This document shows positions 12,847 to 48,671 of a stretch of 55,205 nucleotides of DNA, one piece after another; positions within the stretch are counted from its first letter, which is position 1; each line of letters begins with the position of its first letter. The stretch is from a virus (lineage: Duplodnaviria; Caudoviricetes). The stretch is taken from positions 1 to 55,205 of the IMG/VR virus record IMGVR_UViG_3300009509_000033; one strand, given 5' to 3'. Below the pieces are notes generated by a model. It was given only the letters and a program-made list of their open reading frames with translations, was not told where the DNA came from and ran no database searches. The position numbers and the translations under genes are program-made.

Positions 12847-13953
12847 ATGGCGAAGACGGTTGATCGCTTCAAGGCGCTCATGGCGAGCGACCTGATAGCG
12901 AAGATCAAGAAGAAGCACGGGGCGAACATCCTCACGCCGGCCGACGAGTTTCGGATTCAGAGGGTGCCTCGAATCCCCACGGGCATCTTCTTTCTCGACT
13001 ACGCGCTCGGGGGAGGCGGCTTCCCGGCTGGGAGGACGAACATCGTCTGGGGGCACAAGAGCACGGGCAAGACCGTCATCTGCCTTCGGACCATGGGCAA
13101 CGCTCAGAGGCTCTGCGCCAACTGCTACACGTTCCCGGACGAGGAGACGGGGAAGTGCCAGTGTGGCGACTTCCGTGAGACCATCTGCTCATTCCTGGAC
13201 GTCGAGGGCTCATGGGACCAGGACTGGGCACGGCTCCACGGCGTGAACACGGAGAGGGTCATCTTGTCGGTTCCGGAATACGCCGAGCAAACTCTCGACA
13301 TCGCCGAGGCGTTGCTCCGGTCCGGGGAGGTGGACTTCCTCGTCATTGACTCGCTCGCCTTCCTCACGCCCGCGAAGGAGATCGAGGAGTCCACGGCGAA
13401 GGCCCTTCAGGCTGAGCAGGCTCGGGCTCTCGGCCGAGGCATCCGCAAGTTCGTGGCGGCCCTGAATCATATGGGCAATGTGACGGGAAGGCGCCCGACG
13501 CTGATCTTCACGAACCAGATTCGGATGAAGGTCGGGCTCCTGTTCGGGAACCCTGAGACACAGCCCGGCGGGTACGCCCCGGGCTTCTCCGCCACGACCG
13601 AGATCAAGACGTTCGGCGGAAAGTACGAGATGGACGAGGTGACCGGCCGACCCATCCATGTGGACATGAGCTACCGGGTCGAGAAGAACAAGTCCGCCGG
13701 AGCGAAGATCGAAGGTGAGTGGCGACTCATGCTGGCCGACACCGCGATCAAGAAGAAGGGCGAGATCTATGAGGAGCCCGCCATGGTGGACATGGGGATC
13801 AAGATCGGGCTCGTCGAGAAGGACGGGAACGGCTGGGTATGCCTCGGAGAGAAGTACCGATCGAAAGCTCTCCTGGTCACAGCGATGGTGGAGAACGCGG
13901 CCCTGAAGAGGCAGTACGGGGACACGTTGATGGGCGTCTTGACGGCGGGGTAG
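12847..13953 (+). CDS. recA: RecA/UvsX recombinase with Cys-rich insertion
   Basis: IPTG..LDYALG.GGFP.GR, GHKSTGKT, FLDVE, VIDSLA, FTNQIRMKVG..FGNPETQPGG, VEKNK. Confidence 0.92.
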   Translation: MAKTVDRFKALMASDLIAKIKKKHGANILTPADEFRIQRVPRIPTGIFFLDYALGGGGFPAGRTNIVWGHKSTGKTVICLRTMGNAQRLCANCYTFPDEETGKCQCGDFRETICSFLDVEGSWDQDWARLHGVNTERVILSVPEYAEQTLDIAEALLRSGEVDFLVIDSLAFLTPAKEIEESTAKALQAEQARALGRGIRKFVAALNHMGNVTGRRPTLIFTNQIRMKVGLLFGNPETQPGGYAPGFSATTEIKTFGGKYEMDEVTGRPIHVDMSYRVEKNKSAGAKIEGEWRLMLADTAIKKKGEIYEEPAMVDMGIKIGLVEKDGNGWVCLGEKYRSKALLVTAMVENAALKRQYGDTLMGVLTAG

Positions 13954-21700: not shown

Positions 21701-23750
21701 CGGGGAGCAGGAGCCCTACTACAACAAGTTCTGGAAAGCCTTCGCGGCCGGGAAGATGGACTTCGATCCGACCCAGATGGCTCCGGCTCTGTCTCGTGTC
21801 GAGGCGATGGACCCGCTCGTGCTGGAGAAGGCACTCTCGGAGTACGCTGACACGGTGAAGCGGATGCAGGGGCCGGCGAAGGCATATGACCGCTACGCCT
21901 TCATGAAGCAGATGCTCAGCCGCAAGAACACCCTCCGGTACGACTTCGAGAAGTTCATCACGGAGCAGTACGAGAAGCGGACCGGGAAGAAGGGCGTGTT
22001 CACCTTCAAGGCCGGGTGGAAGCCGGAGGGGGTCGAGGAAGGGCCGAAGTACGAGACCATCTCTCAGTCGGCCCGGGACTGGGCTCTGAAGGAGTTTGGT
22101 CCGAAGGCCCTGAAGCCTCACAAGGACTTCCCGGAGCTGATCCTCGTGCGCGTGCAAAACGACGAGCCGATCACAAAGGTGCAGGAGTTCCTGAGCAAGA
22201 TGGGCGTCGAACCGGCAACGACGGACCCGGACGGGAACCCGCTTCCCATGAACCCGATCCTCGGCTCCAACTACAACAGCGTCATCGTGAAGGTGTCCGA
22301 CCTGGAGAAGGTGGTCAAGCGCAAGGTCGAGATCAAGAAGGACCCGGGGCAGAAGTACGCCGACCACACTGGGGTTCCGACCTACCAGGCACAGGTTCTC
22401 GCGCCCCCGGACGCGCCTGGGAACGTGGACGGCCTCGCGACGGCGCACAAGGAGCACCTCGGCCCGCTCGGGAAGGACTTCACGCTCGACTCGGATGCCG
22501 TGGAGCAGCAGACGGCCTCGGTCCAGCGAGTCATCGGCCAGGACGGAGAGACCTACTACCGGGCTCACTTCAAACTCCGCCGGCCGTACTGGGAGCCGCT
22601 GGTTCACACGGGCAAGTCCGGGACCTTCACGTGGCCGCTCGGGGCCTACGAGCCGGACAAGGACGCGCTCGTGATCAGCAGCTACCAATCGGGAGCCCAC
22701 TCTGAGCCAGCTCGCGTCTTCAAGTCCGGCAAGGACGAACTCTACCTCATCACGGGCGAGACGAACTGGGCGTTCATGGGATCGGTCTACGTGCTCATCC
22801 GATCTGGCGAGGGGAAGGTCAAGGCGGCCCTCACGAAGCTGTTGAAGGAGCTGGGTCTCGACAAGAAGGTGCTGACAGACCCGACGTCGGAGGACATCCG
22901 GCTCTACAACCTCACGCAGGCCCTCTGGTACCTCTCACCGAAGGCGCACAAAGAGCTGGCCGACTCAGGGGACCTCACGCTCGATGCCGTGACCAAGCGG
23001 TTGAAGGGGCGCCTCACCAAGGAGGAGATGGAGGGGATTCGCCAGGTGACCGGCACGGTGGGACGCGGGTCCGCGATGGTTCCTGGTCTCTGGAGAAAAC
23101 TCGGAGGAGGGACCCCGGAGAAGCCGGTCATCCGCTTCGTGTTCTGGAACGTCCGAACGACGAGCGTCCCGAAGATCCTTCGCTCGGCTGCCACAGGCGT
23201 TCACGAGCGGGTCCGAATGGGGCTGCCGGGCGGGGCGACGGGGCACGGGGCGTCGGAGGAGCAGGACATGGCGACGGGTGGCGCCGATACGACCACGATG
23301 CGTATCTCGACAGCGCAGGCCGGCAATGTGCCGATCAGCGTCGTTGGGAACATCCATCGGGAGGTGCGGATCATCATCGCTCCTGAGCTACTCGATCGTC
23401 TGGACATCTCGCTGGCGACTGGTGACGCCTTCGGGTGCCAACGCTACTCTGGGTACAAGAGCGAATACTTCCGTCAACGCCAGGGCATGAGCAACGCGAT
23501 CAAGACCTTCGATGGAGGTGGGGCGTCCACGCATAAAGGCAACACCGAGATTCAGATCCGACGTGGTGTCCCACCGAATCTGATCAAGAGGGTGTGCACG
23601 ACGTCCGAGCACCACCGCAAGGAGGTGCTGGCGAACTGCGAGAAGGTCGGCATCACGGAGCACAACAAGGTGCCCATCGAAGATTTCGTCGTGGTTGAGG
23701 ACAACGCCGGGACCATCTATAATAAGTACATAAAGCCTTTGGGGTACTGA
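18702..23750 (+). CDS. 1682-aa multidomain (polyvalent-type) protein: about six beta-rich repeats, a HipA/PI3K-like kinase fold and a possible C-terminal ADP-ribosyltransferase-like domain
   Basis: repeat G..D.NG.P...LLP...V..W....G.Y; kinase motifs YLFKP, DWLMSQHDSFASNF, GIDKE; C-terminal SEEQDMATGGAD and NTEIQIRRGV. Confidence 0.7.
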   Translation: MAMGMMSETISNRARPLWEAQQEPDPEKFVPVFSWDSKHVWVWVKKPGGKVVGPVEVPHDQVHKYKGKLGWLAKKTEYTALLDPGWYAGVEDLYPATWKPGDSLAIGQLPSEKITAAFKPFTVTPEKAAKKPKTIPPEFTLTGKKDPHGYQTVEDEATGEEYSLLPDDKIGQWTPEEGVYYIAKKLPGEDWAVHLDSPVYKPHELEPKTSLPPMDPPKDFELPPNYTIKKVAPSYVLATTPDGTDVKWIKATDHWVHADDPTKEHEPLQAAVPKVKKYPKVPKKKAAPKAPPAGKPSTPKPEEKKVVSKTAEPAPHMTKYLGQVDDNGLPLVDEVPEGDYEEEEVAKGLTLLPDDRVARWRPTEGVYLIYDYDPYFGFMFSKSGETVTPDEAKQLMAALHLTVHAGRYHKYDVAGAEAPQPTTYSAPLPDHCKSISGTDVNGLPMVLTVPEDPYDEAHKLTVFPNARVGRWDSLSKKYLYWEWREILGDYNYYPTHPAEYVSLKEIQKMQAQAGGGPVPAPAPAVITGLIWPTKQKPKPKVSKPNAPPPSPSTTAAKPPPVPAKPPVLAGALKPTGKDDPLGYHIGSYKGSTYSMLPDKKVGVWSAVSGAYILYDYDPLGDAFFNTGYTWTPPGKHKALAYVSLVGLDHAQLEDSTGKSVVVLANGKFARHEKGAWFAYKVDPAQGKKFVPTGEEISSETMAAIAKTPSYKTMKPTGEVDENGLPTYKIVKGPTKGKVFTMLPTGSLAHYNPKSKSYRLMSFDPDIEGWELSWPKETFTLNDINAMYLKVGSEPMEPKETAPTEKPAPKVPTEPQTPVFVTPQGKLPDPKTLKDLGGVGLLGAGPDKTVLQDPKTGQRYLFKPALPKGGAKVVQPYKAKSQEGFAAVAALVRPDAHVPVETVTHNGKLGTIQPMLDLDPNQPDLNGVNPADLTDQQKLDVADEHLLDWLMSQHDSFASNFVITKEGRVVGIDKEQGWRYVNDPKYPDRLATDYKPNSEIYGEQEPYYNKFWKAFAAGKMDFDPTQMAPALSRVEAMDPLVLEKALSEYADTVKRMQGPAKAYDRYAFMKQMLSRKNTLRYDFEKFITEQYEKRTGKKGVFTFKAGWKPEGVEEGPKYETISQSARDWALKEFGPKALKPHKDFPELILVRVQNDEPITKVQEFLSKMGVEPATTDPDGNPLPMNPILGSNYNSVIVKVSDLEKVVKRKVEIKKDPGQKYADHTGVPTYQAQVLAPPDAPGNVDGLATAHKEHLGPLGKDFTLDSDAVEQQTASVQRVIGQDGETYYRAHFKLRRPYWEPLVHTGKSGTFTWPLGAYEPDKDALVISSYQSGAHSEPARVFKSGKDELYLITGETNWAFMGSVYVLIRSGEGKVKAALTKLLKELGLDKKVLTDPTSEDIRLYNLTQALWYLSPKAHKELADSGDLTLDAVTKRLKGRLTKEEMEGIRQVTGTVGRGSAMVPGLWRKLGGGTPEKPVIRFVFWNVRTTSVPKILRSAATGVHERVRMGLPGGATGHGASEEQDMATGGADTTTMRISTAQAGNVPISVVGNIHREVRIIIAPELLDRLDISLATGDAFGCQRYSGYKSEYFRQRQGMSNAIKTFDGGGASTHKGNTEIQIRRGVPPNLIKRVCTTSEHHRKEVLANCEKVGITEHNKVPIEDFVVVEDNAGTIYNKYIKPLGY

Positions 23751-24970: not shown

Positions 24971-26767
24971 GTGCTCGACTACGACTTCATCACGCGGGCG
25001 GACGACCTCGACCGCATCGCGACGGACGTCCTGCAAGCGGACGTCCTCGGTCTCGACATCGAGACCACGGCCCTCGACCCCCGCTACGGGGACATCCGAC
25101 TCGTCCAGTTGATCGTCCCCGGCGTCGAGAACGACGGCAGGGGCCGCATCTACGTGATCGACCTCTTCGAGACGAAGACCCTCGGCCCTGTCCTCGCAGC
25201 CATGCGCGAGACGAAGGCAATCTTCGTGGTCCACAACGCGAAGTTCGAGCAGAAGTGGTTCTGGTGGAAGTTCCGCTTCCGCATGTGGCCGGTCTTCTGC
25301 ACGTTCCGAGCAAGCGCGATCATCTACAACGGCAAGAAGGGTCTGCGGCACGACCTCGATTCCGTGGTCATCCGCGAAGTGGGTGAGCACCCTGTGAACG
25401 TCGGGCAGGGCGCGTCGGACTGGACCGGGACGCTCAATCAGGCGCAGAAGGACTACGCGGCTGAGGACGTTCTGAGGCTCCTTCGGCTTCGGGTCGCGTT
25501 GAAGAAGAAGCTGACCGAGTACGGGCTGCTCACGACGGCGCTCGTGGAGTTTGGTGTCGTGTTCGCCGAGGGCCGCACCGAGTTGAACGGCTTCGCGCTC
25601 AACAGCAAGAAGTGGACGACGCTCGCCGAGACCAATATGGCGGCTCGGGCGACGGCTCGCGAGGAGCTACTCTACGAGCTACCACATCCCAAGGACCAAC
25701 TCGCGCTTCCGGGGATGGGCGGCAACTGGAACATCGACTCGCCTCAGCAGATGCTCGCCTCGCTCCGTCGGCTCGGGCTGGACATCGACAAGACGCCAGA
25801 GATCGTGCTCGCTCAGCACGCGAGCCGATACCCGCTCGTCAAGAAGGTGCTCGACTATCGGCACATCGCCCAGCGCGTCAAGACGTTCGGAATGACGTTC
25901 CTGCGGCACCTCGACTCGGACGGTCGCATCCACCCCGAGTATTTCGGGCTGCTCGTGACGGGGCGGTACAGCGCGAACAAGTCCATGCAGCAGATCCCGA
26001 GGGCCTACGAGTTCCGCGACTGCTTCGAGGCCCCCGAGGGCCGGAAGCTGGTAGGCGGCGACTACTCCGGGATCGAGATGGTCCTCTGCGCCGAAATCTC
26101 CGGCGATCCGGTTCTCACTGCGGTCTTCGTGAACGGAGAGGACGCGCACCGGGCGACGGCAGCCGTCATCATGGACGTGCCGGTCCACCTCGTGACGAAG
26201 GACCAACGCCAGAACGCGAAGCCAGTGAATTTCGGGTTCATCTACGGAATGATGCCGGAGAAGTTCGTTCTCTACGCGATGGCCAACTACGGCGTCATCG
26301 TCACGCTCTCGCAAGCGAAGAAGTACCGAGAGCGCTACTTCGAGAACTACAAGGGCATCGAGCAGTGGCACCGCCGAGTGCTTCGCGACGGACAGCGGAA
26401 CGGCTTCTCTCGGACGCTGTGCGGGCGCATCCGATACCTCGACCCGAATGAGGCGTTCAACGAGTTCTACAACACCCCAGTGCAAGGGTCCGGCGCCGAT
26501 GCTCTGAAGACCTCCCTCGGGATCGTGCAGGACAACCTGGACAAGCGCTTCGGCATCACCCCGGCGGAAACTCCGGATGGGCCTGTCCCCATCGTCCACC
26601 ACGTGCATGACGAGATCATACTGGAGGCGGACGACGACCACGAGATGATCGCCGAGGCCGAGACGATTCTCCACGACAGCATGAAGGAGGGGATGGAGCG
26701 GTATGTGAAGAAGGTCCCTGTCGTGGTAGACCCGTCGAACGGAAGGTCATGGGCTGAGATACACTGA
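24971..26767 (+). CDS. polA: family A DNA polymerase with 3'-5' exonuclease
   Basis: DIETT, HNAKFE, YAAED; motif A DYSGIE, motif B RQNAKPVNFGFIYG, motif C VHDE. Confidence 0.95.
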   Translation: MLDYDFITRADDLDRIATDVLQADVLGLDIETTALDPRYGDIRLVQLIVPGVENDGRGRIYVIDLFETKTLGPVLAAMRETKAIFVVHNAKFEQKWFWWKFRFRMWPVFCTFRASAIIYNGKKGLRHDLDSVVIREVGEHPVNVGQGASDWTGTLNQAQKDYAAEDVLRLLRLRVALKKKLTEYGLLTTALVEFGVVFAEGRTELNGFALNSKKWTTLAETNMAARATAREELLYELPHPKDQLALPGMGGNWNIDSPQQMLASLRRLGLDIDKTPEIVLAQHASRYPLVKKVLDYRHIAQRVKTFGMTFLRHLDSDGRIHPEYFGLLVTGRYSANKSMQQIPRAYEFRDCFEAPEGRKLVGGDYSGIEMVLCAEISGDPVLTAVFVNGEDAHRATAAVIMDVPVHLVTKDQRQNAKPVNFGFIYGMMPEKFVLYAMANYGVIVTLSQAKKYRERYFENYKGIEQWHRRVLRDGQRNGFSRTLCGRIRYLDPNEAFNEFYNTPVQGSGADALKTSLGIVQDNLDKRFGITPAETPDGPVPIVHHVHDEIILEADDDHEMIAEAETILHDSMKEGMERYVKKVPVVVDPSNGRSWAEIH

Positions 26768-31074: not shown

Positions 31075-33093
31075 ATGATCGAGTACGAGAACGGCCACTG
31101 GCGGTCGGCACGGACGCCGCAGGAGAAGACCGGGCTCCTAGAGCGGGACCTGGAAACTCTCACGCCAGAGGAGCGCACGACGATCGAACTCATCATGCAG
31201 GAACTCGCCAACCCGGAGGAGTCGGCCGGGCTCCTACGGACGATCGGCAACCTGGAGTGGGTTCGGACTCCGGTGGACATGCAGACGTTCGTGATGGACC
31301 CCTACTACCTGGGGAACACCTGCGACAACCTGTACCCGCTCCTCCTCGAAGACCTAACGACCCTTTTCGACGAGGGCTACAGGGAGGCGATCTTCACGGG
31401 TGCCATCGGGTGGGGAAAGACGTTCGGGGCGTCCATCGGCATCTGCCGGCTGCTCTACATCCTGTCGTGCATGAGGGACCCTCACCGCTCGTTCGGGATC
31501 GCGGCCAACTCGAACATCTCCATCGTCTGCCTCTCGGTCAACGAGATCCTGGCCACCAAGGTCGCCTACGAGAACATCGCCACCAAGATCGAAGCGAGCC
31601 CCTACTTCCAGGAAAACTTCCCTTTCGAGAAGACCAAGAAGGAGCTTCGGTTCCCTCGGAAGGTGTGGGTTGCGGCTCGGGCCTCGAATGACGGCTCCGT
31701 GCTCGGTCTGAACGTGATCGGCGGGCTGCTCGACGAGACCAACTTCATGCCCAAGGCGTCCAAGGGGCAGGACCCTCGGTTCAACCTACAGGACCGGGCC
31801 GAGGTGCTCTACAACGCCATGCAGCGCCGGATGAAGTCCCGGTTCGAGCGCAAGGGGCGACTCCCTGGCATCCTGTTCGTCGTCTCCTCGAAGCAGACCA
31901 ACGACGACTTCACGGCGAAGCGGATCAAGGAGTCGATCAAGGACCCGACGGTGTTCGTTCGGGACTACGCTCTGTGGGACGTGAAGCCGGACATCTACTA
32001 CTCCGGGGACTGGTTCCACGTTGTCGTTGGAAACGAGCAAGCTCCTAGCCGAATCATCGACACGGACGAGGACTTGGACGAGGTTCGGGTCACCCTCCCC
32101 GAGGACTGTGTGATCATCTCCGTCCCCGAGGACTTCCGAGGGGACTTCGAGAACGACCTCGAAGGGGCCATTCGCGACCTTGCTGGAGTGGCTACTGTCT
32201 CGGTGAGTCCCTACATCCAACGCCGGACCAAGATCATCGACGCCATCCGGAAGGACTTGAGACACCCATTCAGCACGGAGATCTACGACCCCTCTCAGCC
32301 TGGCCGGTTCTACTGGCACAAGATGTTGCGCCCGGCGAAGGATGCGGAGGCCGGTCAACGGCCGATCCTGAACCCATACGCTCCTCGGCATATCCACATC
32401 GACCCGTCCCTGACAGGCGACTCGACAGGCTTCGCGATGGGACACATCTCCGGCTGGCGAGAGGTGGTCCGTCGCGACGACGAGGGGAACAAGTATCCCG
32501 AGCGCGCCCCCGAGGTGACGTTCGATGTGATACTGAAGATCGTCCCACCGATTGGAGGGGAGATCATCCTTGGGGAGGTCCGAAAACTCGTCTACCAGTT
32601 GAGCAAGCACGGGTACATGATCACCTGCGTCTCGATCGACTCGTGGAACTCGGCTGACGCGATCCAGAAGTTGAACCAGCGTGGCTTCAACGCGATGCAG
32701 TTGTCTGTGGATCGGACGATGGGTCCCTACGACCTGCTCAAGACCGGGCTCTATGAGGACCGGGTGTACTACTACGAGTACGAGCCCCTTCTTCAGGAGC
32801 TACGCGAGTTGGAGCACGACCGCTTGAAGCGGAAAGTGGACCACCCCTTGAGAGGCTCGAAGGACGTCGCGGACGCGGTGGCCGGGGTGATGTGGACGCT
32901 CACAGAAAACTCCTCGGCGCTCCCGTTGGCGATCCTCCGCAGCGCGCGGGACGATGGGGATGCGTGGATGCAGGAGCACCAGCAAGCGGCACTAGCTCGG
33001 AGCTATGGGAGCGAGGACGTGGCCGAGATGTCTGAAGACGTTACGGCTTTGCCTCCATTTCTGATAGGCTCTGGGGGCAGTTGGGGAGACTGA
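31075..33093 (+). CDS. terL: terminase large subunit
   Basis: Walker A GAIGWGKT, Walker B GGLLDE, RNase H-like HIHIDPS and KDVADAV. Confidence 0.9.
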   Translation: MIEYENGHWRSARTPQEKTGLLERDLETLTPEERTTIELIMQELANPEESAGLLRTIGNLEWVRTPVDMQTFVMDPYYLGNTCDNLYPLLLEDLTTLFDEGYREAIFTGAIGWGKTFGASIGICRLLYILSCMRDPHRSFGIAANSNISIVCLSVNEILATKVAYENIATKIEASPYFQENFPFEKTKKELRFPRKVWVAARASNDGSVLGLNVIGGLLDETNFMPKASKGQDPRFNLQDRAEVLYNAMQRRMKSRFERKGRLPGILFVVSSKQTNDDFTAKRIKESIKDPTVFVRDYALWDVKPDIYYSGDWFHVVVGNEQAPSRIIDTDEDLDEVRVTLPEDCVIISVPEDFRGDFENDLEGAIRDLAGVATVSVSPYIQRRTKIIDAIRKDLRHPFSTEIYDPSQPGRFYWHKMLRPAKDAEAGQRPILNPYAPRHIHIDPSLTGDSTGFAMGHISGWREVVRRDDEGNKYPERAPEVTFDVILKIVPPIGGEIILGEVRKLVYQLSKHGYMITCVSIDSWNSADAIQKLNQRGFNAMQLSVDRTMGPYDLLKTGLYEDRVYYYEYEPLLQELRELEHDRLKRKVDHPLRGSKDVADAVAGVMWTLTENSSALPLAILRSARDDGDAWMQEHQQAALARSYGSEDVAEMSEDVTALPPFLIGSGGSWGD

Positions 33094-33132: not shown

Positions 33133-33471
33133 ATGGACAGCCTGCTCCAACAACTCACAGAGGTCTTCGGAGGCGACATGAACGTGGCCCCCGGAGGTAC
33201 GGGTGCTGTGCTGACTCGGCCCTCAAAGCTGTCCTTGGAGGTGGCGCAGCAAGCCGTTCGGTCCATGCCGATCGACGGTCTGTACCGGGATGTGGGAGCT
33301 GTTGCAGCGCGGGTCCTGGCCGACGAGTTGGAGAGCCGATCTCTCCGGCCGGCGGACTACGCTAACCTCCCCGACCTACCGAAGGTGGTGGCGAAGAGGA
33401 TCGTCGGCTACCTTCTCCGGTCGGAGGAGTTTGCTCGGTCGTTCTCCGAGCACCTTGCCGCGAGGGGATAG
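33133..33471 (+). CDS. hypothetical protein in the head module
   Basis: stop overlaps the portal GTG. Confidence 0.65.
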   Translation: MDSLLQQLTEVFGGDMNVAPGGTGAVLTRPSKLSLEVAQQAVRSMPIDGLYRDVGAVAARVLADELESRSLRPADYANLPDLPKVVAKRIVGYLLRSEEFARSFSEHLAARG

Positions 33472-35255
33472 TGGGCGCCGTACAGAACGTCATCGATCGC
33501 CTCCGTGGCGCGTTCATCGCCGACAAGGAACGGGGAGGGGAGCTACTCGCCAAGGGAAGCACCTCTCCGACCTACCCTGATTCTGGGTACGACCTGCTCC
33601 AAGCCTACGGGTACGACGCCCTCTCGGACTACCTTCGGTTGGAGCACGATCTCCTGTCCCGCTACGTGGACTACGAGGAGATGGACGACTACCCGGAGAT
33701 CGCCTCCTCCATCGACATCTACGCCGACGACGCTTCACAGCCCGACACGCAACTCCAGCGGACGGTGTGGGTGTCGAGCCCAGACAAGACCCTTCAGGGT
33801 GTGCTCGACGACCTGTTCCACAAGCGGCTTCGCCTGGACGAGGAGATCTGGGAGATTGTCCGCTCGCTTGTGAAGTACGGGAACGACTACGAGGAGATGC
33901 TCGTCACCCAAGAAGGTGTCGTCGGGCTGAACTTCCTTCCGGCGCCGACCGTGCGCCGCGTGGAAGGCCCACGTGGGGAGCTGTACGGGTTCGTGCAGGA
34001 CTTCAAGGGCCGGTTCGGCTACTCCCCGCAGGAATTCCAGAAGATCCTGGCTCAGCGGACCGACGCCATTCGCCAGACGCTTCAACCCGGGGTCGCGCGT
34101 GTGCCCGGGAACATCCTCCAGCGCGTCTCTGCGTTGGAGCCGTGGGAGGTGGCCCACTTCCGTCTGCGAGGGAAGCACCGCCGCAGCGTGTACGGCTACT
34201 CGGTCTTGGAGCCGGCCCGGTGGATATGGAAGCGGCTCATGCTGCTCGAAGACGCTGCGATGATCTACCGACTCCAGCGCGCTCCCGAGCGGTACGCCTT
34301 CTATGTGGACGTCGGCGACCTTCCCCCTGGGGAGGCTCTGGCGTTCGTGAACAAGATCCGGCAGCAGCACAAGAAGAAGCGCTACGTCAACCCCTCCACT
34401 GGAAAACTCGATCTGAAATTCGAGCCCCTGTCCCAGGACGACGACTTCTGGGTCCCTGTCCGGAAGGGAGTAGAGGGGACGAGGATCGAGGTGCTCGGCG
34501 GCCCGTCCTGGCAGCACATGGACGACGTAGAGTATTTCCAGACCAAGTTGTTCACCGCAGTGAAGGTGCCCAAGGCGTACCTGGCTCAGGATGAGAATAC
34601 GGCTCGGGCCGTGCTCTCCAGCGAAGACGTCCGGTTCGCCCGCTCGGTGCTTCGCGTTCAGCGAGAGGTCCGCAACGGCCTTCGCAAGGTGACCCGGACA
34701 CACCTCGCCGCGCTCAACATCGACCCCTACGCGACCGAGTACACCATCCACATGACCGTGCCCTCGGCCATTTTCGAGTTGGCCCAGCTTGAGGTGCGGA
34801 ACGCGCGAGCCGACCTGGCATCTCGGATGCGAGAGCACGTCTCGCTTCGGTGGGTGCTGGAGAACGTCTACCAGCTCTCGGATGAGGATATCAAGATCAT
34901 CATCCAAGAACGCTCGGAGGATGTCATTCGGGAGGGGAAAGCGCAGGCCGAGGTCGAAAAACTCAGCGCCATGGCCCAGGCTGCCGCAGAGCGGGGCGCC
35001 GGAGGGGCACCTGGAGTGGAGTCCCTCGGCGCTCCTTCTGGGATGAGGGTTCTCGAACGGAAGCTGGCCGCCATTCCGCGTCAACTGCGCGGCATGATCA
35101 CGGAGAAGGAGCTTCTGAGAGGGAGTCGCGAAGCCGAGAAGAGGGCAGAGGAGAAGCTGAATCGCATCCTCCGATCGAACGACGTGAACACCCGTCGTCT
35201 GAAGGAGAGCATCTCTCTGCTCCGCGAAGTCGTGGCGGCCGGTCGAGGTCGCTGA
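33471..35255 (+). CDS. T4 gp20-like portal protein
   Basis: PEIASSIDIYADDA, LEDAAMIYRLQRAPERYAFYVDVGDLP, DDFWVPVR.G..GTRIEVLGG, KVPKAYL. Confidence 0.93.
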   Translation: MGAVQNVIDRLRGAFIADKERGGELLAKGSTSPTYPDSGYDLLQAYGYDALSDYLRLEHDLLSRYVDYEEMDDYPEIASSIDIYADDASQPDTQLQRTVWVSSPDKTLQGVLDDLFHKRLRLDEEIWEIVRSLVKYGNDYEEMLVTQEGVVGLNFLPAPTVRRVEGPRGELYGFVQDFKGRFGYSPQEFQKILAQRTDAIRQTLQPGVARVPGNILQRVSALEPWEVAHFRLRGKHRRSVYGYSVLEPARWIWKRLMLLEDAAMIYRLQRAPERYAFYVDVGDLPPGEALAFVNKIRQQHKKKRYVNPSTGKLDLKFEPLSQDDDFWVPVRKGVEGTRIEVLGGPSWQHMDDVEYFQTKLFTAVKVPKAYLAQDENTARAVLSSEDVRFARSVLRVQREVRNGLRKVTRTHLAALNIDPYATEYTIHMTVPSAIFELAQLEVRNARADLASRMREHVSLRWVLENVYQLSDEDIKIIIQERSEDVIREGKAQAEVEKLSAMAQAAAERGAGGAPGVESLGAPSGMRVLERKLAAIPRQLRGMITEKELLRGSREAEKRAEEKLNRILRSNDVNTRRLKESISLLREVVAAGRGR

Positions 35256-35293: not shown

Positions 35294-36187
35294 GTGTCGG
35301 CCAAGATGATCGAGCGTTCCAACAAACTCCTTCCCGGGACTGAGCTACGGAGGCTCCGCATGGGGAGCTACGAGTCTCGGATCGAGGAGACGGTTCGCAC
35401 GGTCCGGGCCTTGTTGGGGGAGACGCCGTTCGAGGTCGTTTCCACAAGGGACGATGGGGCGATTGTCTTCTCGGATGGGAAGTTCCTCCGGTTGGAGCTG
35501 ACCGAGGAGGGACCGACGCTCTCCGATCTTGACGTCGAGATGTTCGACACGACCACCCTCTACGCATTCGTGGAGCGCGAGGCCGAGGTCGTGGCCGATC
35601 TGTTCCTTCACGGGTCGATGAAGTCGGCCGTTTCGCGACTTGAGAACCTGGTTCCGTTGGCGGCGATTCCGGACAGAGAGGTCGCTCGGGCTGAGGCCCT
35701 GATCGCGGCTCAGCGTCCATGGAAGCGCCTCTTCGAGGCCCGACGTGAGGCCATCATGGCTTTCCTGGGGGACGCGACCGTAGTGCTCGAAGAGGGCCGG
35801 TTGCGCCTCAAGTTGGGGAAGTTGTATGATGAGTCGATCGAAGAGGGCAAACTCGATGGCTTCGAGGATCGAGTAGCAGAGGTTCTTAGGATCGTGGTCG
35901 AGAGAATCGAAGAGGCTCGGGACGAGGTGGAGGCGGCACTTCTGGCAGCAGAGGCCCCTCTCTCCGAGGCCACGGAGCCCGTCTCTGTCACATTCAGGCA
36001 GTTCGCCCACGACCTTCTCGCCGATCTGCGTGTGCTATGCGACTCAAGTTCCCATGCAATCGAGGTGGTGGACGATATCCGTGCTCGTGGTAAACTCTGC
36101 GACACGCTTGTCGAGGGGTTGTACGATCGTGAGGTCGCCAGCCGCTTCGTCGTCGTAGTGGCCGATAGAATGGTCGAGGCCAGCTAG
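35294..36187 (+). CDS. hypothetical head-module protein
   Basis: GAGGAG RBS, GTG start; lies between the portal and the protease. Confidence 0.7.
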   Translation: MSAKMIERSNKLLPGTELRRLRMGSYESRIEETVRTVRALLGETPFEVVSTRDDGAIVFSDGKFLRLELTEEGPTLSDLDVEMFDTTTLYAFVEREAEVVADLFLHGSMKSAVSRLENLVPLAAIPDREVARAEALIAAQRPWKRLFEARREAIMAFLGDATVVLEEGRLRLKLGKLYDESIEEGKLDGFEDRVAEVLRIVVERIEEARDEVEAALLAAEAPLSEATEPVSVTFRQFAHDLLADLRVLCDSSSHAIEVVDDIRARGKLCDTLVEGLYDREVASRFVVVVADRMVEAS

Positions 36188-36197
36188 GAGGATCGAG

Positions 36198-37127
36198 ATG
36201 ACTTTGCTCAGGCACCCGGTGGTGATCACCTCCCTGGAGGAGGACTTCCGGAAGATCGGCCTCATCACGGAGGCCCGCGACGAGAACGCCGACGTGGAGG
36301 ACGTGGAGGACGACGCCGAGGACACCGAAGAGGTGGACGAGTCGTCGTGCGGGTCCAAGAAGGGCAAGAAGGGCAAGAAGCCCCCCATGTCCATGGAGTC
36401 CGAGGACGACGAGGACGACGAGAGCGTCGATGAGTCCGAGGGCGAGGACGACGAGGACAACGAGGCCATGGCCGAGGCCGTCGCCTTCCACGAGAGCGCG
36501 AAGCAGATGTGGGAGGAGATGGGAGCGGCCGGTGTCGAGACCATCACGCTCGACGAGGAGGACATGGCCGAGTTGGAGTCCATGGCCGGCTCCATCACGG
36601 AGCTTCCCCTCGAAGTCATCGGCGAGGATTCCTTCGGCGATGAGGACGGGGAGGAGTTCGTCGAGGACGAGGGCGAGGAGGACGACGAGGCGTCGCCGTC
36701 TCCCTTCGAGTCGGTCGCCGAGGCCATGAGCACCATCGAGTCCATCCTGGACGAGGACACCGCTCCCCCGTCGTCGCTCGAAGAGGCGACCCCGGCGTTC
36801 GCCAACCTCGCGCTCATCTCGGAGAAGCTGTTCGGCTTCTTCGCCGAGCTGTCCGAGGCCCAAGAGGACGCGGAGTACGGGGAGATTGCCGAGGCGTACA
36901 AGAACATCGCGCAGTACGCGGCGGCGATCGTGGACACCCTCCAGAAGGAGGACGAGTCCACCATCAACTTCGATGCGCTCACCGAGACCTTCCAAGAGTA
37001 CCTCGGGACGGTCCTGCAAGGACTGGAGACCTACGCCATCCTTCGGGAGGCGGACGAGGGAGACGAGGAGGGCGAAGAGGGCGAGGAGCAGGACGAGGGC
37101 GAGGAGCAGGACGAGGGAAACGAGTAG
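36198..37127 (+). CDS. very acidic prohead core/scaffold-like protein
   Basis: AGGAGG RBS; extremely E/D-rich; lies before the protease; ends at slippery G GGA AAC. Confidence 0.7.
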   Translation: MTLLRHPVVITSLEEDFRKIGLITEARDENADVEDVEDDAEDTEEVDESSCGSKKGKKGKKPPMSMESEDDEDDESVDESEGEDDEDNEAMAEAVAFHESAKQMWEEMGAAGVETITLDEEDMAELESMAGSITELPLEVIGEDSFGDEDGEEFVEDEGEEDDEASPSPFESVAEAMSTIESILDEDTAPPSSLEEATPAFANLALISEKLFGFFAELSEAQEDAEYGEIAEAYKNIAQYAAAIVDTLQKEDESTINFDALTETFQEYLGTVLQGLETYAILREADEGDEEGEEGEEQDEGEEQDEGNE

Positions 37128-37360
37128 AGCGGCGACGGCCGCTCCCGCCTCATAAGGGTGGGTCGTGGCGCCGCCGCAGAACAGCGTATTCCTCGGGGAG
37201 ACGAGAAGTGATCGGAGTCGAGAAGAGTCCAGTGAAGCGGAAGACGCGGACAGTCGGTCCGGCCGGCTCCGTGCTCGACCGTCCTGGGCTCGGGGGCGTG
37301 CTCGACACCATCGTCGGCCGCACCCCGTTCCGGTCCAACTTCCGATGGAAGAGGTCGTGA
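37115..37360 (+). other. putative -1 programmed frameshift site and 79-codon extension frame
   Basis: in-phase G GGA AAC (37115-37121), a hairpin 5 nt downstream, and a -1 frame open to TGA 37358-37360 overlapping the protease ATG. Confidence 0.6.
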
Positions 37361-39042
37361 TGGGCGATCAGACCAATTCCCCGACCCCTACCCAGTTGAT
37401 CGACGAGCAGGTTCACCACTGCAAACTCGAACTGGTAGAAGGGGAAGGCGAGAAGAAGGGCCGCGTTTTCGCACGCGGCGAATTCGGCCACGCGGCCAAG
37501 CCGACCGCGAACGGCCGTTTCTATCGGCACAACATCTGGGAGAGCAACATCTCTCGGCTCCGGCCGAACCTGGAGTCGCGGAAGGTGCTCGGGGAACTCG
37601 ACCACCCCACCGACGGGCGCACGGCTCTCCAGCGCGCCTCGCACGTCATCACCGACCTTCGGTTGGAGGGCGATCAGGTGATGGGCGAGGCGGAGATCCT
37701 CGACACGGCCAAGGGGCGCGACCTCAAGGCCATCCTGGCGGCTGGCGTGCCAGTCGGCATCTCGTCGCGCGGCTTCGGGAGCACCAAGCCGAATCGTGAA
37801 GGTGTCGAGGAGGTCCAAGAGGACTACAAACTCGTCACCTTCGACTTCGTGGCGGAGCCGGCCGACCCGACGGCCTATCCAGAGGTCGTCTTCGAGAACG
37901 TCGAGCAGGGCGCGACACTCATGTTCGAGGGGATGGCGTTCGAGGCTCAGGAGCCGGAACCTGCTTCCGAGCCAGAGCCCGAGCCCGAGCCCGAGCCCGA
38001 AGGCGGCGAAGGCGGCGAAGGCGACGAGGACGGAGACGACCCGGCAGAGGAAGGCGTGGCCCCGAACGTAGGGTCCGCTCCTCCGGGAGAAGCCGAGATG
38101 GCCAAGCGTTTCGCCGCGCGTGTGCTGGCGGACGCGGAAGGCAACGAGATCGACGTCGAGGCACTCCGCCAAGAGTTTGCGGACCAGATCGTCGCACGCA
38201 TCGCCGCTCTCCGCGCGGACGTCGAGAAGCAGGTTCGTGCAGAGATGGCGGCCGACCCGACTGTTGCGGACGCCCGTGCGGCGTTGGAGCAGGTCCAGAG
38301 GGCACTGCTCCCGTTCTCGCTGACGGAGGACGCCAACGCGCTCCTTTCCGAGCGCGATGCGGAAATCCGTGTGCTGCGCTCTCAACTCGAAGAGGCGGAG
38401 CAGCAGATCGAGCAGAGCGAGACGCTGATCGAGACGCTGACAGCGGCGGCTCGCGAGGCGGGCTACAGGTACCACCTGGAGTGCCTGCTCCACGAGGACG
38501 ACTCGGACACCGAACGGCTTCGGACCATCGTGGGTGACGTGCTGCAATACGAGAGCCCGGACGCGCTTCGCGAGCGTGTGGAGGAGGCGTACCAAGAGTT
38601 GCAGACGTTCCGCCTCGAAGAGGCCCGCGTCGAACAGCGCCGGTCTGCGATGGCCGATCAACTTCGATCCAAGAACCGCGAGTTGGCGGAAGGGCTTGAG
38701 CAGGCCCTCGTCGCCAATCGGGACCTGGCTCTCCAGGTGTACGCATCGGAGAGGTTGCAAACTCACCCACAAGGTGCGAAGATCCTCCGGATGCTCAGGC
38801 GATCTGGAATCCAGTCGCGTGAGCAAGTGGACGCCATGATCGAGGACTTCCGAGAGCCGGTCCGGGACGCTGACGATCTTGAGCAGGTGCGAGCGAGGGT
38901 TCGTGCGCGCCTGCATGGTGGTCAGGAGTACCTGGCAGAAGACGCACAGCCCGCGCGTGGCCGGGGGGCCAACGCGAGCAACTACAACGGTCTCGGAGCG
39001 TCCCTGGCAGATCTGAAACACCTGGCAGGGATGGGCGACTGA
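37360..39042 (+). CDS. T4 gp21-like prohead protease fused to a coiled-coil scaffold region
   Basis: NGRFY, LGELDHP, ASHVI, GISSRGFGS, LVTFDFVAEP; start reassigned to the ATG at 37360. Confidence 0.9.
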   Translation: MGDQTNSPTPTQLIDEQVHHCKLELVEGEGEKKGRVFARGEFGHAAKPTANGRFYRHNIWESNISRLRPNLESRKVLGELDHPTDGRTALQRASHVITDLRLEGDQVMGEAEILDTAKGRDLKAILAAGVPVGISSRGFGSTKPNREGVEEVQEDYKLVTFDFVAEPADPTAYPEVVFENVEQGATLMFEGMAFEAQEPEPASEPEPEPEPEPEGGEGGEGDEDGDDPAEEGVAPNVGSAPPGEAEMAKRFAARVLADAEGNEIDVEALRQEFADQIVARIAALRADVEKQVRAEMAADPTVADARAALEQVQRALLPFSLTEDANALLSERDAEIRVLRSQLEEAEQQIEQSETLIETLTAAAREAGYRYHLECLLHEDDSDTERLRTIVGDVLQYESPDALRERVEEAYQELQTFRLEEARVEQRRSAMADQLRSKNRELAEGLEQALVANRDLALQVYASERLQTHPQGAKILRMLRRSGIQSREQVDAMIEDFREPVRDADDLEQVRARVRARLHGGQEYLAEDAQPARGRGANASNYNGLGASLADLKHLAGMGD

Positions 39043-39100: not shown

Positions 39101-40597
39101 GTGGAAGCTCGACAGATGCTTCAGGAAGAGGGTCGTCGAACGATCGCCGACCAGAGCTACGTCGGGGCCTTGATCCGGAAGTGGGGAGACTTCCTGGAGG
39201 GCCTCGCGGACCGAAGCGAGCAGGACAGGTACATCCTCGGATGCACCGCCATGCTCATGGAGAACGAGTCGCTGTGGCTCCAGAGCCTCACGGAGGAGAC
39301 TCGGACGGTGAACGTCGGATCGTTCACCAAGTTCATCTTCCCCGTGTTGCGGCGAGTTTTCCCGAACCTGATCGCGAACGAGATCGTCTCGGTCCAGCCG
39401 ATGACGGCCCCGATCGGCGCGGTCTTCTTCCTCGACTACGTGTACGGCTCGACCAAGGGCGCCACGACCGAGGGAGCCGTGTTCCCGCGCGACTTCGATC
39501 GGGACTACTCCTCGGAGTACGTCAACGGCGAGCCGCTCGTGACCGGCGATGGCGTCAACTTCGGCGGAGGTGGCACACCGCTCGACGCCGTGCTGGCGTG
39601 GACGCCGGTTCGTCCGCTCGACGCGGCGCGTGGCTTCCAGGTCGCGATCCGTGAGATCGACTCCTCGACCGGAGCGACCCTGAAGGAGATCGTCTTCGAT
39701 GCGGCCGGGACTGGCTCGGCTTCGGCGGACTACTCCGCCGGGTCGATCAACCACTCCAACGGCTCGATCACCGGGCTCCTGTTCACGGCGATTCCGGCGC
39801 TGGGGAACCAGATCAAGGCGTTCTACTACTTCGATGGCGAGCTGAACACCAAGGTTCCCGAGGTGAAGCTCGACGTCAAGAAAGCTCCCGTGGAAGCCGT
39901 GCCGCGTCGGCTCAAGGCTCTGTGGTCGAGCGAGGCAGCGGAAGACCTCCGCGCCTTCCACGGCCTCGACGCCGAGACCGAGATCGTGTCGATCATCGCG
40001 CAGGAGATCGCGCTGGAGATCGATCGCGAGATCATCCAAGACCTGTTCCTGTCCTCGACGGGGACCACCGGCACGTTCGATCGCATCCCGCCGGGCGGCA
40101 TCGCCGAGATCGACCACATCCGCGCGTTCATCACGCAGATCAGCACGGTCTCGAACCTCATCCACAAGAAGACCCTCCGCGCGCCGGCCAACTGGATCGT
40201 CACGAGCCCCGAGATTTCGGCGCTCCTGACCCAGCTCACCACGCACGGCGACTTCAAGCCCATCTGGTCGGCGGACATGAACCCGAACTCGCCGACCGAC
40301 ATCATGCGGCCCCGGACGGCCCACGGGCAGTTCTCGATCTACAAGACCGGGACGCTCATGAACAAGTGGGTCGTCTACGAGGACCCCTTCTTCACGACCA
40401 ACAAGATGATGGTCGGTCTGAAGGGCGGGAGCTTCCTGGAGTCCGGCTACTGCTGGGCGCCCTACGTGCCCCTCCAGGTCACCCCGACGTTCCTCGACCC
40501 GAGCGACTTCAGCTTCCGCAAGGGCCTCCGGACCCGGTACGCGAAGAAGCTGCTTCGCCCGGACTTCTACGGTCAGATCACGGTCAACAACCTGTAG
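39101..40597 (+). CDS. T4 gp23-like major capsid protein
   Basis: VQPMTAPIG.VF, RRLKALWSSEAAEDLRAFHGLDAE, EIDREII, APYVPLQ, RTRYA. Confidence 0.95.
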   Translation: MEARQMLQEEGRRTIADQSYVGALIRKWGDFLEGLADRSEQDRYILGCTAMLMENESLWLQSLTEETRTVNVGSFTKFIFPVLRRVFPNLIANEIVSVQPMTAPIGAVFFLDYVYGSTKGATTEGAVFPRDFDRDYSSEYVNGEPLVTGDGVNFGGGGTPLDAVLAWTPVRPLDAARGFQVAIREIDSSTGATLKEIVFDAAGTGSASADYSAGSINHSNGSITGLLFTAIPALGNQIKAFYYFDGELNTKVPEVKLDVKKAPVEAVPRRLKALWSSEAAEDLRAFHGLDAETEIVSIIAQEIALEIDREIIQDLFLSSTGTTGTFDRIPPGGIAEIDHIRAFITQISTVSNLIHKKTLRAPANWIVTSPEISALLTQLTTHGDFKPIWSADMNPNSPTDIMRPRTAHGQFSIYKTGTLMNKWVVYEDPFFTTNKMMVGLKGGSFLESGYCWAPYVPLQVTPTFLDPSDFSFRKGLRTRYAKKLLRPDFYGQITVNNL

Positions 40598-46106: not shown

Positions 46107-48671
46107 ATGGCCGAAATTCTGTCGCCAGGCGTGTTCATCGAGGAGGTGCCGAGCGCCGTCCAGGTCGTGCAGCCGGTCTCCACGTCGAACATGGGAATCG
46201 TCGGCGCGACCAAGCGAGGCCCCACGGATGAGGCCACGCTCGTCACGTCGTTCGCGCAGTTCACGCGCATCTTCGGCGAGTTGATCTCCGACTCGCGGAC
46301 CGGCCTGTCGATGGCCGCGTACTTCGCCAACGGAGGGAGGCGGGCTTTCGTGGTCCGTGTCATGCCGAGCGACGCGGTGGAGGCCGGAACGGACCAGAGC
46401 GGGGCGCCCTCGGCCTACGACAAGGGCCAGCTCACGAGCGCTCGGAGAGATTTCGAGTGCAACGTGGGCGACGGCGTGACGGCCACCGTCACGGAGTCCG
46501 TCCTCTCTGCGACCGCCCTCATCACACCCCTCGTGGCCGAGCCCGGCGTGTCCGGAATCACCTTCCGGTGGCGTTCGGATGACACCGCGCTCGTGGCCGA
46601 CCCGCTCATGCAGCGGGACGGCGTGACCGCTCTCGTGACGGTCATCGCCAAGGCTCTCGTGGAGGGTCGAATCGACCCGACCTCGATCCCGACCGACCTC
46701 GACCTCGCGCTCCCGAGCGTGATGCCAGGGGCCACCATGCAGTTGACGTTCGACCCCGGTGCCGGGGCTGTGAACGTCGCTCTGACTCAGGTCGGCACGT
46801 CGCTGATCGCGACGGGGACCTCGGGTGCCGGCTCCACGTTCACGCTCGACCTCGTGACGGGCTTCCTGTCCATGGAGTTGACGGGCGCGGACATCCCGAC
46901 CGCGAACGGCAACGCCTTCACGCTCGACTTCACCCCAGGCACGGCGGTGAGGTCAATCTCCGATGACGGCAACGGGGCCATCCCGGATGTTGGTCCGATC
47001 CTCACGGCGGCCGGCTCGGTGGACTACATCGGAGCAACGGCCGGGGACTACACGTTCACGGCGGCGGCCGGCTACGAGCCCGGCGACGGGTGCCCGGTCC
47101 TCTGCGACTACGACGTCCAAGCGTGGGACCTCGATCCCATCTCGGTCGGGTCGTGGGCCAACGACATGCTCGTGGAGGTCATCGGCAACGACGACTACTA
47201 CGACGTGGCGACGGACACGTACACCCGGTTCAACGTCAACGTCCGGCTGCTCAACTCCTCGACCAGCCTCTACGACATCGTGGAGACCTACGAGGAGATT
47301 ACCTTCACCGACCCGACCTCGGCGCAGTATTTCCCCGACGTGCTCAACGACCTGTCCGATCTGGTCAACGTCGTCGAGCCGGCGCTCAACGGCGAGGGTC
47401 CGGCGCAACTCAACGGTGAGGCTCGGAGCCAGGTCGTCGCTGGCGGCGACGAGGACGTGGCGAACCGGCAGATCACGGACACCCTCGCCTCGGTCCCCGT
47501 CAACGCCAGGTCGTTCAGCCTGTCCTGGACGGATGACACCGGGACGGCCCGGTCCATCACGGACGACGGGGCCGGCAACCTGATCGGCGACGTGGACGGA
47601 GCAGGCAACAACACGATCGACTACACCACGGGCGCGATCGACGTGCTGCTCTCGAACCCGATCGCCCGCGACTCGCTCCTCTCGGCGACGTGGCGGGAGT
47701 CCTCCGAGGAGGACAGCCACCTCGACGGCTTCGCTGGCGGGGCGGACGGCACCTTCACCAGCACGACCACCTACGGTCGGAACCAGTTCACGGCGATCAC
47801 CCTGGAGCCAAACTTCCAGGGCCTCTACGCCCTGAACAAGATCGAGGAGTTGATGCAGGTGGTCATCCCCGACTTCGCCGGGGACATTCAGATCACCCGC
47901 GACCTGCTCGACTACGTGGACAGCCGAGAGGTTCTGCCCTCGGGCGGAGACCGCTTCGCCATCCTCATGGTCCCGCAGGGCTCGTCGGCGCAAGAGGCGG
48001 TGGACTTCCTCCGCATCGACGTGGGGCAATACTCCAAGTTCGCGGCGATGTACTGGCCGTGGGTCAAGATCGCCGATCCGCTCTCCGACAACCGTCCGGT
48101 CGTGTTCCCGCCGCTGGGTCACATCGCGGGCATCTACGCGCGCACGGACTCGACCCGGAACGTGGGCAAGGCCCCGGCTGGGACCGTGGACGGTGCTCTC
48201 CGCTTCCTCGTCGGGCTGGAGATTGACTCCATCAGCCAGGGCGAGCGCGACCTCGTGTACCCGGCGAGGATCAACCCGCTCGTCTCCGGCCCGCAGACCG
48301 GCCTCGCCGTCTGGGGTGCCAGGACCATCTCGCTTCAGAGCGAGTGGCGCTACATCAACGCCCGGCGCCTCTTCATGTTCGTCGAGAAGTCGGTCTACAA
48401 CGCGACGCACTGGATCGTGTTCGAGAACAACGGTCCGGGCCTCTGGGCGAGGATCAAGGCCCAGATTCAGGGCTTCCTCACCAATCTCTTCAACGACGGT
48501 CTCTTCGCGGGGACGACCCCGGCGCAAGCCTTCTTCGTCACCGTGGACGAGAGCAACAACGATCAGGCGTCCATCGACGCCGGACAGGTCATCATCGACG
48601 TCGGGATCGCGCCGAACAAGCCCGCCGAGTTCGTGCGCTTCCGCTTCCAGCAGAAGACGCTGGACTCATAG
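46107..48671 (+). CDS. contractile tail sheath protein with inserted domains
   Basis: SPGVFIEEV, YFANGG, YWPWV, GKAPAG, WGART, WRYINARR, VFENN, APNKPAEFV. Confidence 0.95.
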   Translation: MAEILSPGVFIEEVPSAVQVVQPVSTSNMGIVGATKRGPTDEATLVTSFAQFTRIFGELISDSRTGLSMAAYFANGGRRAFVVRVMPSDAVEAGTDQSGAPSAYDKGQLTSARRDFECNVGDGVTATVTESVLSATALITPLVAEPGVSGITFRWRSDDTALVADPLMQRDGVTALVTVIAKALVEGRIDPTSIPTDLDLALPSVMPGATMQLTFDPGAGAVNVALTQVGTSLIATGTSGAGSTFTLDLVTGFLSMELTGADIPTANGNAFTLDFTPGTAVRSISDDGNGAIPDVGPILTAAGSVDYIGATAGDYTFTAAAGYEPGDGCPVLCDYDVQAWDLDPISVGSWANDMLVEVIGNDDYYDVATDTYTRFNVNVRLLNSSTSLYDIVETYEEITFTDPTSAQYFPDVLNDLSDLVNVVEPALNGEGPAQLNGEARSQVVAGGDEDVANRQITDTLASVPVNARSFSLSWTDDTGTARSITDDGAGNLIGDVDGAGNNTIDYTTGAIDVLLSNPIARDSLLSATWRESSEEDSHLDGFAGGADGTFTSTTTYGRNQFTAITLEPNFQGLYALNKIEELMQVVIPDFAGDIQITRDLLDYVDSREVLPSGGDRFAILMVPQGSSAQEAVDFLRIDVGQYSKFAAMYWPWVKIADPLSDNRPVVFPPLGHIAGIYARTDSTRNVGKAPAGTVDGALRFLVGLEIDSISQGERDLVYPARINPLVSGPQTGLAVWGARTISLQSEWRYINARRLFMFVEKSVYNATHWIVFENNGPGLWARIKAQIQGFLTNLFNDGLFAGTTPAQAFFVTVDESNNDQASIDAGQVIIDVGIAPNKPAEFVRFRFQQKTLDS

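Follow-up and report, generated by a model that had tools for sequence, protein, structure and literature searches.

A candidate -1 frameshift that would join a basic tail to the acidic head-core-like protein of a T4-type phage head module

We analyzed a locus in an uncultured tailed phage (Duplodnaviria; Caudoviricetes; IMG/VR record IMGVR_UViG_3300009509_000033) at which the gene for an acidic, head-core-like protein ends shortly before the gene for the prohead protease. The whole virus record, 55,205 bases with 63% G+C and an estimated completeness of ~34%, is referred to here as the window. An earlier note on this DNA, made from its letters alone, had proposed that a -1 frameshift adds a basic tail to the acidic protein, and the elements that it named (a slippery heptamer, the TAG stop, a short hairpin, an open reading frame (ORF) in the -1 frame and a TGATG overlap) were all found where it had placed them. 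The site is made up of the following features, with lengths of proteins in amino acids (aa).

36198-37127, + strand: acidic head-core-like gene (0 frame), 309 aa
37115-37121, + strand: slippery heptamer G_GGA_AAC, an in-phase X_XXY_YYZ
37125-37127, + strand: 0-frame stop TAG, with a single codon, GAG, between heptamer and stop
37115-37360, + strand: -1-frame ORF, 81 codons from GGG 37115 plus the stop TGA
37127-37144, + strand: short perfect 7-bp hairpin GAGCGGC-GACG-GCCGCTC, an alternative local fold
37129-37177, + strand: long hairpin, ~19 bp interrupted by small bulges, set 7 nt 3' of the heptamer; the minimum-free-energy fold and a probable frameshift stimulator
37175-37207, + strand: RRTAYSSGRRE, the most conserved peptide block of the tail, 5' of every canonical -1-frame start
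37208-37210, + strand: GTG, the first canonical start in the -1 frame, with GGGGAG upstream; a possible additional internal initiation site
37358-37362, + strand: TGATG, in which the -1-frame stop TGA (37358-37360) overlaps the protease ATG at 37360
37360-39042, + strand: prohead protease, 560 aa, with a long C-terminal region fused; Peptidase_S77, T4 gp21-like

The gap between the acidic gene and the protease gene is 232 nt. The acidic ORF ends GAG GGA AAC GAG TAG, and the 0-frame codons within the heptamer are GGA at 37116 and AAC at 37119. The 81 codons of the -1 frame correspond to GK followed by the 79 residues given in the earlier note. An independent 230-nt assembly contig (run X13) spans 37036-37265 with zero differences from the window; the other contig pieces, from four sequencing runs, either gave short matches to the GAG/GAC-rich tail or had the site outside their coverage.

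The significance of the site comes from its conservation across relatives and not from the window alone, where GGGAAAC occurred 3 times against 7 expected, so that there is no excess. A search of Rfam gave a single sub-threshold match, to RF01074 (RF_site1, a putative RdRp ribosomal frameshift site), over 37115-37149 and the full length of the model; it scored 23.4 bits, where the gathering score is 40 (E = 0.072). A second in-phase heptamer, G_GGA_AAG, lies at 31413-31419 within the large terminase gene, and further in-phase heptamers in the window are C_CCT_TTC (31620) and T_TTC_CCG (39358).

We identified related loci by protease searches in viral and metagenome contigs. These gave 13 distinct close lineages (the window, L001, L003, L005, L006, L014-L017, L019, L029, L030 and L033), with protease identities to the window of 52-87%. 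The relatives proved to keep the slippery site that the earlier note had described, with an in-phase heptamer at the end of the acidic gene in 13/13. Eleven carried G_GGA_AAC, one codon and then a stop, with TAG, TAA and TGA all occurring, and the remaining two (L016 and L017) carried G_GGA_AAA followed immediately by TAG. The acidic tail flanking the heptamer varied in length and sequence among these lineages, and GGA is a minor codon, used for 13% of the glycines across the six head-module genes that were counted; the heptamer is therefore conserved at the nucleotide level. Downstream, the -1 frame was open for 79-86 codons in all 13, reaching or nearly reaching the protease start.

In the 5' direction, a stop in the -1 frame adjoins the heptamer in L003 and L033 and precedes it by one codon in L015 and by three codons in L029. 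Together with the 0-frame stop it bounds ~12 nt, and any change of frame is therefore confined to that interval, which includes the heptamer. The interval from heptamer to conserved block was free of ATG, GTG and TTG in 12/13 close lineages, and L001 had one TTG. Where the -1 stop lies 5' of the heptamer, a change of frame would, as far as the sequences tell, be the sole route to the conserved block.

We then asked how the -1 frame has evolved, using Nei-Gojobori counts over ~35 codons from the heptamer to the position of the internal ATG or GTG (about 37121-37219). At first, second and third -1-frame codon positions there were 4, 1 and 20 differences between the window and L001, 1, 0 and 6 between L005 and L006, and 4, 5 and 14 between L003 and L005. 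In the first of these comparisons the -1 frame had 19 synonymous changes against 6 non-synonymous ones, a ratio of non-synonymous to synonymous substitution (pN/pS) of 0.13. Across 10 pairs the -1-frame pN/pS was 0.07-0.53, as low as further downstream, and in the same columns the other two frames gave values from 1.1 to infinity (6 control pairs). The invariant block RRTAYSSGR.E..G..KS spans the position of the supposed internal start. Computationally, these comparisons show a -1 frame that behaves as translated from the heptamer onward, with no apparent start codon upstream of the conserved block and with heptamer and hairpin both conserved.

We also examined the tail in a wider family, represented by 51 distinct tail sequences obtained by a motif scan of loci from tail-alignment searches of viral contigs. 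The sample includes the window's own copy (L057) and one locus cut by the contig end (L047), and it was conditioned on the tail motif, not on the heptamer or the frame relation. At 48 of the 49 loci with a visible upstream gene the tail lay in the frame that requires a -1 shift, and at 33/49 a canonical heptamer stood in phase among the final 3 codons of the gene upstream (28 GGGAAAC, 4 GGGAAAA and 1 AAAAAAA). Among these 33 heptamer loci, 27 had no ATG, GTG or TTG before the motif and none had an ATG there. The upstream gene belonged to one family throughout, with the N-terminal motif ..(V/L)(I/T)(T/S)LEEDF..IGL, and the downstream gene was the protease at every locus. The frame relation, the heptamer in every close lineage and the synonymous bias of the -1 frame together support the frameshift that the earlier note had proposed.

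A profile of the tail matched 17 proteins in 1.84 billion representatives, all of 42-93 aa, and several of them, such as M-EAWRH-RRTAY.., begin with their own ATG just 5' of the conserved block. None of the 10 distant cyanophage-like loci scanned (L020-L025 and L034-L037) contained the tail motif, and phage P-HM2 has at the same place only a 98-aa acidic ORF. In five distant loci (L054, L063, L070, L133 and L138) the tail lies in the -1 frame without a canonical heptamer. Four of them, L054, L063, L070 and L138, are also without a start codon before the motif, and in L133 the tail has an ATG of its own 7 codons before the motif. L070, L133 and L138 have CGCCCTA(C/T)C in common, close to where the upstream gene ends; L137, which keeps a canonical heptamer, carries the related AACCCTACC, and L054 reads ..CCC TTC TTT C...

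The hairpin described in the earlier note is present in the window, and it is not the conserved one: the short 7-bp stem was not at that place in the relatives' sequences and fell outside their consensus structure, and what the relatives retain is the long stem at 37129-37177, which begins at the eighth base past the heptamer in 13/13 close lineages. Two subgroups among them differ in inner stems and encoded peptides (RRRPLPPKKGGSWRRRR vs RRRRALxxRKGKTTRQRR) and have outer stem and register in common. In the six-sequence subgroup 90.7% of cells pair, versus 32-63% with a slid partner, and the covariation score of 0.219, versus 0.090 in shuffles, was reached by 0/500 shuffles; in the four-sequence subgroup covariation was weaker (reached by 20/500), and with few and related sequences the shuffle test may overstate the support for the hairpin, which counts against a special role for it. 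Compensatory double changes occur at pairs that join third-codon positions on both arms, wobble to wobble, so the stem can vary with the protein unchanged. Most distant heptamer-bearing loci fold a hairpin 5-9 nt downstream, and a few fold weakly. The hairpin lacks a T-run, and a search of the gap for sites resembling a terminator or a promoter found none. Its role is probably that of a frameshift stimulator.

We consider it highly probable, judging from these sequence patterns, that canonical tandem-tRNA -1 slippage on G_GGA_AAC yields a minor product of ~387 aa. Some of the ribosomes on the acidic gene would slip back one base at the heptamer, where the pause would probably come from the hairpin 7 nt downstream. 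Ribosomes that do not slip would terminate at TAG 37125, yielding the acidic protein of 309 aa (~34 kDa). Those that slip would read 79 further residues and end at TGA 37358, on the protease ATG, and the long product would carry a strongly basic, intrinsically disordered C-terminal tail. A few related phages encode a homologue of the tail as a small basic protein, free-standing with its own ATG at the same position, and the frameshift would thus act as a partial gene fusion. A small head-module protein would be delivered attached to the acidic core protein, in a ratio set by the frequency of the slip. What we infer here is ribosomal slippage as the mechanism, stimulation by the hairpin, a sub-stoichiometric ratio and a function in head assembly.

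In most close lineages the -1 stop overlaps the protease start, as TGATG or TAATG. Judged by eye, it lies from a few to ~11 nt before the apparent protease start in L014, L016, L017, L019, L040 and L056, and ~18 nt before it in L053. An SD-like (Shine-Dalgarno-like) GAGG is also present upstream of the protease ATG. Since slipped ribosomes would terminate on the protease start codon, protease synthesis could be metered by the slip, and translational coupling of the frameshift to protease synthesis is plausible.

Several observations weigh against slippage at this site. In the window, the -1 frame of 37128-37207 scores as non-coding (G+C at third codon positions (GC3) 0.62, at second positions (GC2) 0.81, -0.57 bits per codon), a look that may come from its Arg, Pro and Gly codons plus pairing constraints. 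The fold energy of the hairpin is not beyond chance (z = -1.29 vs dinucleotide shuffles), and in most of the 13 lineages it is no better than that of synonymous recoding; at most 9/300 synonymous-codon permutations fold as well in 4/13 (L005, L006, L016 and L029), and at most 9/300 usage-weighted resamples do so in 2/13 (L005 and L016). In E. coli, the most efficient slippery heptamers do not include those that end in AAC. In the wider family, a heptamer is found only 6-21 codons before the stop in 7/49 loci (C_CCT_TTG and C_CCT_TTC are among these, in distant lineages), a canonical heptamer is lacking in 8/49, and 4/51 tails (L058, L078, L117 and L133) are free-standing with their own ATG. 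The 17 profile matches among 1.84 billion representatives include no single-ORF fusion of acidic protein and tail. No RNA sequencing run containing the stretch was found among the runs listed. Finally, 11/13 close lineages have an SD-like GGGGAG and a start at codons 31-35, which L015 and L033 lack.

The last of these points is among those that favor a gap holding only an independent 50-aa gene from GTG 37208, with the heptamer, the hairpin and the upstream conservation serving, for example, mRNA stability or initiation control. Such a gene would have an SD-like sequence upstream of its start and good coding statistics (37208-37359 is coding-like in the -1 frame, with GC3 0.84 and +0.24 bits per codon), public gene callers call small ORFs at tail loci, and the four free-standing homologues fit it as well. 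The window statistics match what an independent 50-aa gene predicts, and comparison with relatives was therefore needed. In that comparison, however, synonymous-dominated substitution in the -1 frame was found already 5' of the start, and the most conserved block of the family lay 5' of every canonical start in most loci. L015 and L033 have their first canonical start only at codon +38, the free-standing versions start 5' of the conserved block and not after it, and the -1-shift frame relation is all but universal. The earlier note had taken conservation beginning only at GTG 37208 to mean an independent gene; conservation instead begins upstream, with an invariant block before and across the GTG and a synonymous bias from the heptamer on. 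An independent gene as the sole content of the gap is, in our judgment, quite improbable, and a separate 46-50-aa product may also be made from the internal start (GTG 37208 in the window).

The -1 frame might also be reached without ribosomal slippage, by reinitiation after TAG 37125 on a non-canonical codon or by slippage of RNA polymerase. Terminating ribosomes would be near, the 0-frame stop lying just two codons from the heptamer, and the A7 of L086 is a run that could conceivably make the polymerase slip. No NTG, however, is conserved close to the stop, where the fourth -1-frame codon is GTA, ATA or CTG according to lineage, and polymerase slippage as it is known needs longer runs than the three G and three A of the heptamer. 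What is conserved is a canonical tandem-slippage heptamer, swapped for other canonical heptamers elsewhere, and we give these routes very little credence. That the gap belongs to the protease gene has next to no probability: a 65-aa N-terminal extension from GTG 37165, from where the protease frame is open, was rejected by the substitution pattern (pN/pS 1.1 to infinity in that frame, about 37121-37219) and by poor coding statistics (-0.19 to -0.27 bits per codon), and protease alignments begin at the ATG.

Tandem slippage on the heptamer would join two proteins of opposite character. The acidic protein has 104 D+E against 15 K+R and a pI of 4.05, and it is predicted to be helical, with a confident C-terminal bundle (residues ~190-290, predicted local distance difference test score (pLDDT) ~90) and disordered acidic stretches. 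Its family has a strongly conserved N-terminal motif, ..VVITSLEEDFRKIGLI.., recognizable in nearly all loci (window 36198-36270; L001-L138), which could be a targeting or cleavage signal. The -1-frame peptide has a pI of 12.0, with 23 K+R and 5 D+E across its 81 codons, and is predicted to be disordered (mean pLDDT 58.9); its linear motifs are RRTAYSSGR.E near the start and TPFRSNFRW at the end. Neither the acidic protein nor the tail matched a Pfam or PHROG family. For the acidic protein, tblastn against GenBank phages gave zero matches, as did its structural model in Foldseek searches of BFVD and PDB at E <= 0.001. A complex prediction for the tail with the major capsid protein scored 0.00 and carries no weight either way.

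The two proteins occupy a position that fits T4 genes 67 and 68. T4 gp67 and gp68 are likewise encoded between portal gene 20 and protease gene 21 (T4 order 20-67-68-21-22-23), gp67 ends in a long acidic tail, the C-terminal half of gp68 is strongly basic, and start and stop codons overlap up to gene 21, as they do at this locus. In T4, however, each of the two is a protein in its own right, made from its own ORF and start codon and without a frameshift. According to passages in two sources, gp67 and gp68 are core components that gp21 degrades (PMC9958956; PMC5694885). Comparison by hhalign showed no homology of the acidic family to T4 gp67 (7.9% probability), gp68 (0.1%) or gp22 (0.5%), and none of the tail to gp68 (probability <=0.13%). 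The likeness to T4 67/68 is therefore one of analogy and not of membership. As to the earlier note's term "head scaffold protein", the gene does lie between portal and protease, and homology to gp22, gp67 or gp68 was not detected; a head-core or scaffold role for the acidic protein is thus putative, suggested by composition and position only.

In close relatives we noted by eye a conserved [L/I/M]-x-E right before the variable acidic tail (window ~37030-37045, ..AILRE|ADEG..). T4-type prohead proteases cleave after Glu, according to a passage in PMC5694885. By eye, the [L/I/M]-x-E would resemble the after-Glu cleavage motifs of this protease family, and its use would release the acidic tail and the frameshift tail as one peptide. 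One could go further and see the slip as a stoichiometry device for the T4-type prohead core. The RRTAYSSGR..TPFRSNFRW protein would be joined to a fixed minority of acidic subunits, the slip may meter protease synthesis, and the protease may, once assembly is complete, cut at [L/I/M]-x-E to release an acidic-basic peptide that stays with or organizes the incoming DNA. We offer this extended scheme tentatively and regard it as rather unlikely.

The acidic gene is surrounded on the + strand by a T4-type head module, whose other members and the tail sheath gene lie as follows.

31075-33093, + strand: large terminase
33471-35255, + strand: portal (Pfam Portal_T4, E 5e-71)
35294-36187, + strand: 297-aa gene without assignment
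39101-40597, + strand: gp23-type major capsid protein
46107-48671: tail sheath gene

The similarity of the protease to T4 gp21 (Peptidase_S77, E 8.5e-19) covers its residues 31-174. The best cultured relatives of the protease are cyanophage gp21 proteins, at <40% identity across the first third, and no relatives were found in bacterial and archaeal genomes. The protease gene is ~2.5x the length of T4 gene 21, with the S77 domain, a Pro/Glu-rich repeat as linker (EPEPEPEPEPEP) and then ~330 more residues; its C-terminal end motif (..NYNGLGASLADLKHLAGM) is retained even in distant relatives. This long gene may be a protease-scaffold fusion, and the scaffold role may here be carried by its long C-terminal part.

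Elsewhere in the window, the T4-type head is accompanied by replication genes for a family A DNA polymerase with 3'-5' exonuclease, a DnaB-like helicase, a DnaG-like primase and a RecA-like protein (24971-26767, 5166-6551, 7017-8108 and 12847-13953). The genome is mosaic, because this set differs from the family B polymerase set of T4. A 1682-aa ORF at 18702-23750 has good coding statistics (GC3 0.85) and no Pfam match at E <= 0.001. A tRNA scan over the window found none.

Dozens of uncultured phage contigs keep the site in the same position and phase and with the same type of heptamer, and standard gene callers misannotate such loci, reporting a truncated small ORF or an empty gap. Two unannotated protein families are defined by this work, one acidic and core-like and one small, basic and disordered, always between portal and protease. 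The tail, free-standing in few lineages and apparently fused by frameshift in most, offers a natural experiment in how the ratios of core proteins are set. The heptamer plus hairpin, in ~65 nt, would also make a compact high-GC frameshift cassette usable for recoding studies.

Programmed -1 frameshifting in phages is textbook knowledge for tail chaperones and some capsid proteins. Xu, Hendrix and Duda reportedly described in 2004 the tail assembly chaperone frameshift of tailed phages, of the lambda G/GT type. In G/GT, as proposed here, ribosomes that slip by -1 at an X_XXY_YYZ close to the 3' end of a structural-module gene make a minor, C-terminally extended isoform; the isoform ratio is fixed and the position of the site is conserved across very divergent phages. 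The lambda heptamer, G_GGA_AAG, is one base off G_GGA_AAC. Unlike G/GT, the present site lies in the head module between portal and protease, not upstream of the tape-measure gene, and the extension would be a basic disordered tail without sequence relation to that of G/GT. The RF01074 likeness is to a generic heptamer-plus-hairpin model, of which the window's site, being sub-threshold, is not a member.

Extensions of capsid proteins are the other near case. The major capsid protein of Lactobacillus phage A2 is said to be extended C-terminally by a -1 frameshift, and the 10A/10B pair of T7 is another capsid protein with a C-terminal extension made by frameshift. These head-protein genes likewise end in a slippery site and give a minority product with an extra C-terminal module. 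The gene here differs in being acidic and internal or core-like and not a gp23 homologue, and its module is disordered and basic, not an Ig-like decoration. In the archaeal virus MSTV1, the major capsid protein is described as extended C-terminally by -1 frameshift, with the extra module fused directly in one relative (PMC11375127). The reverse variant is seen here, with the module free-standing in a few members of the family. In the full-text literature, searched with subscription journals outside the coverage, we found no account of a T4-type module whose prohead-core or scaffold gene contains a frameshift. The mechanism itself would be a familiar one; what is new, as far as could be seen, is its gene context, how widely the site is conserved and the dichotomy between free-standing and fused tails.

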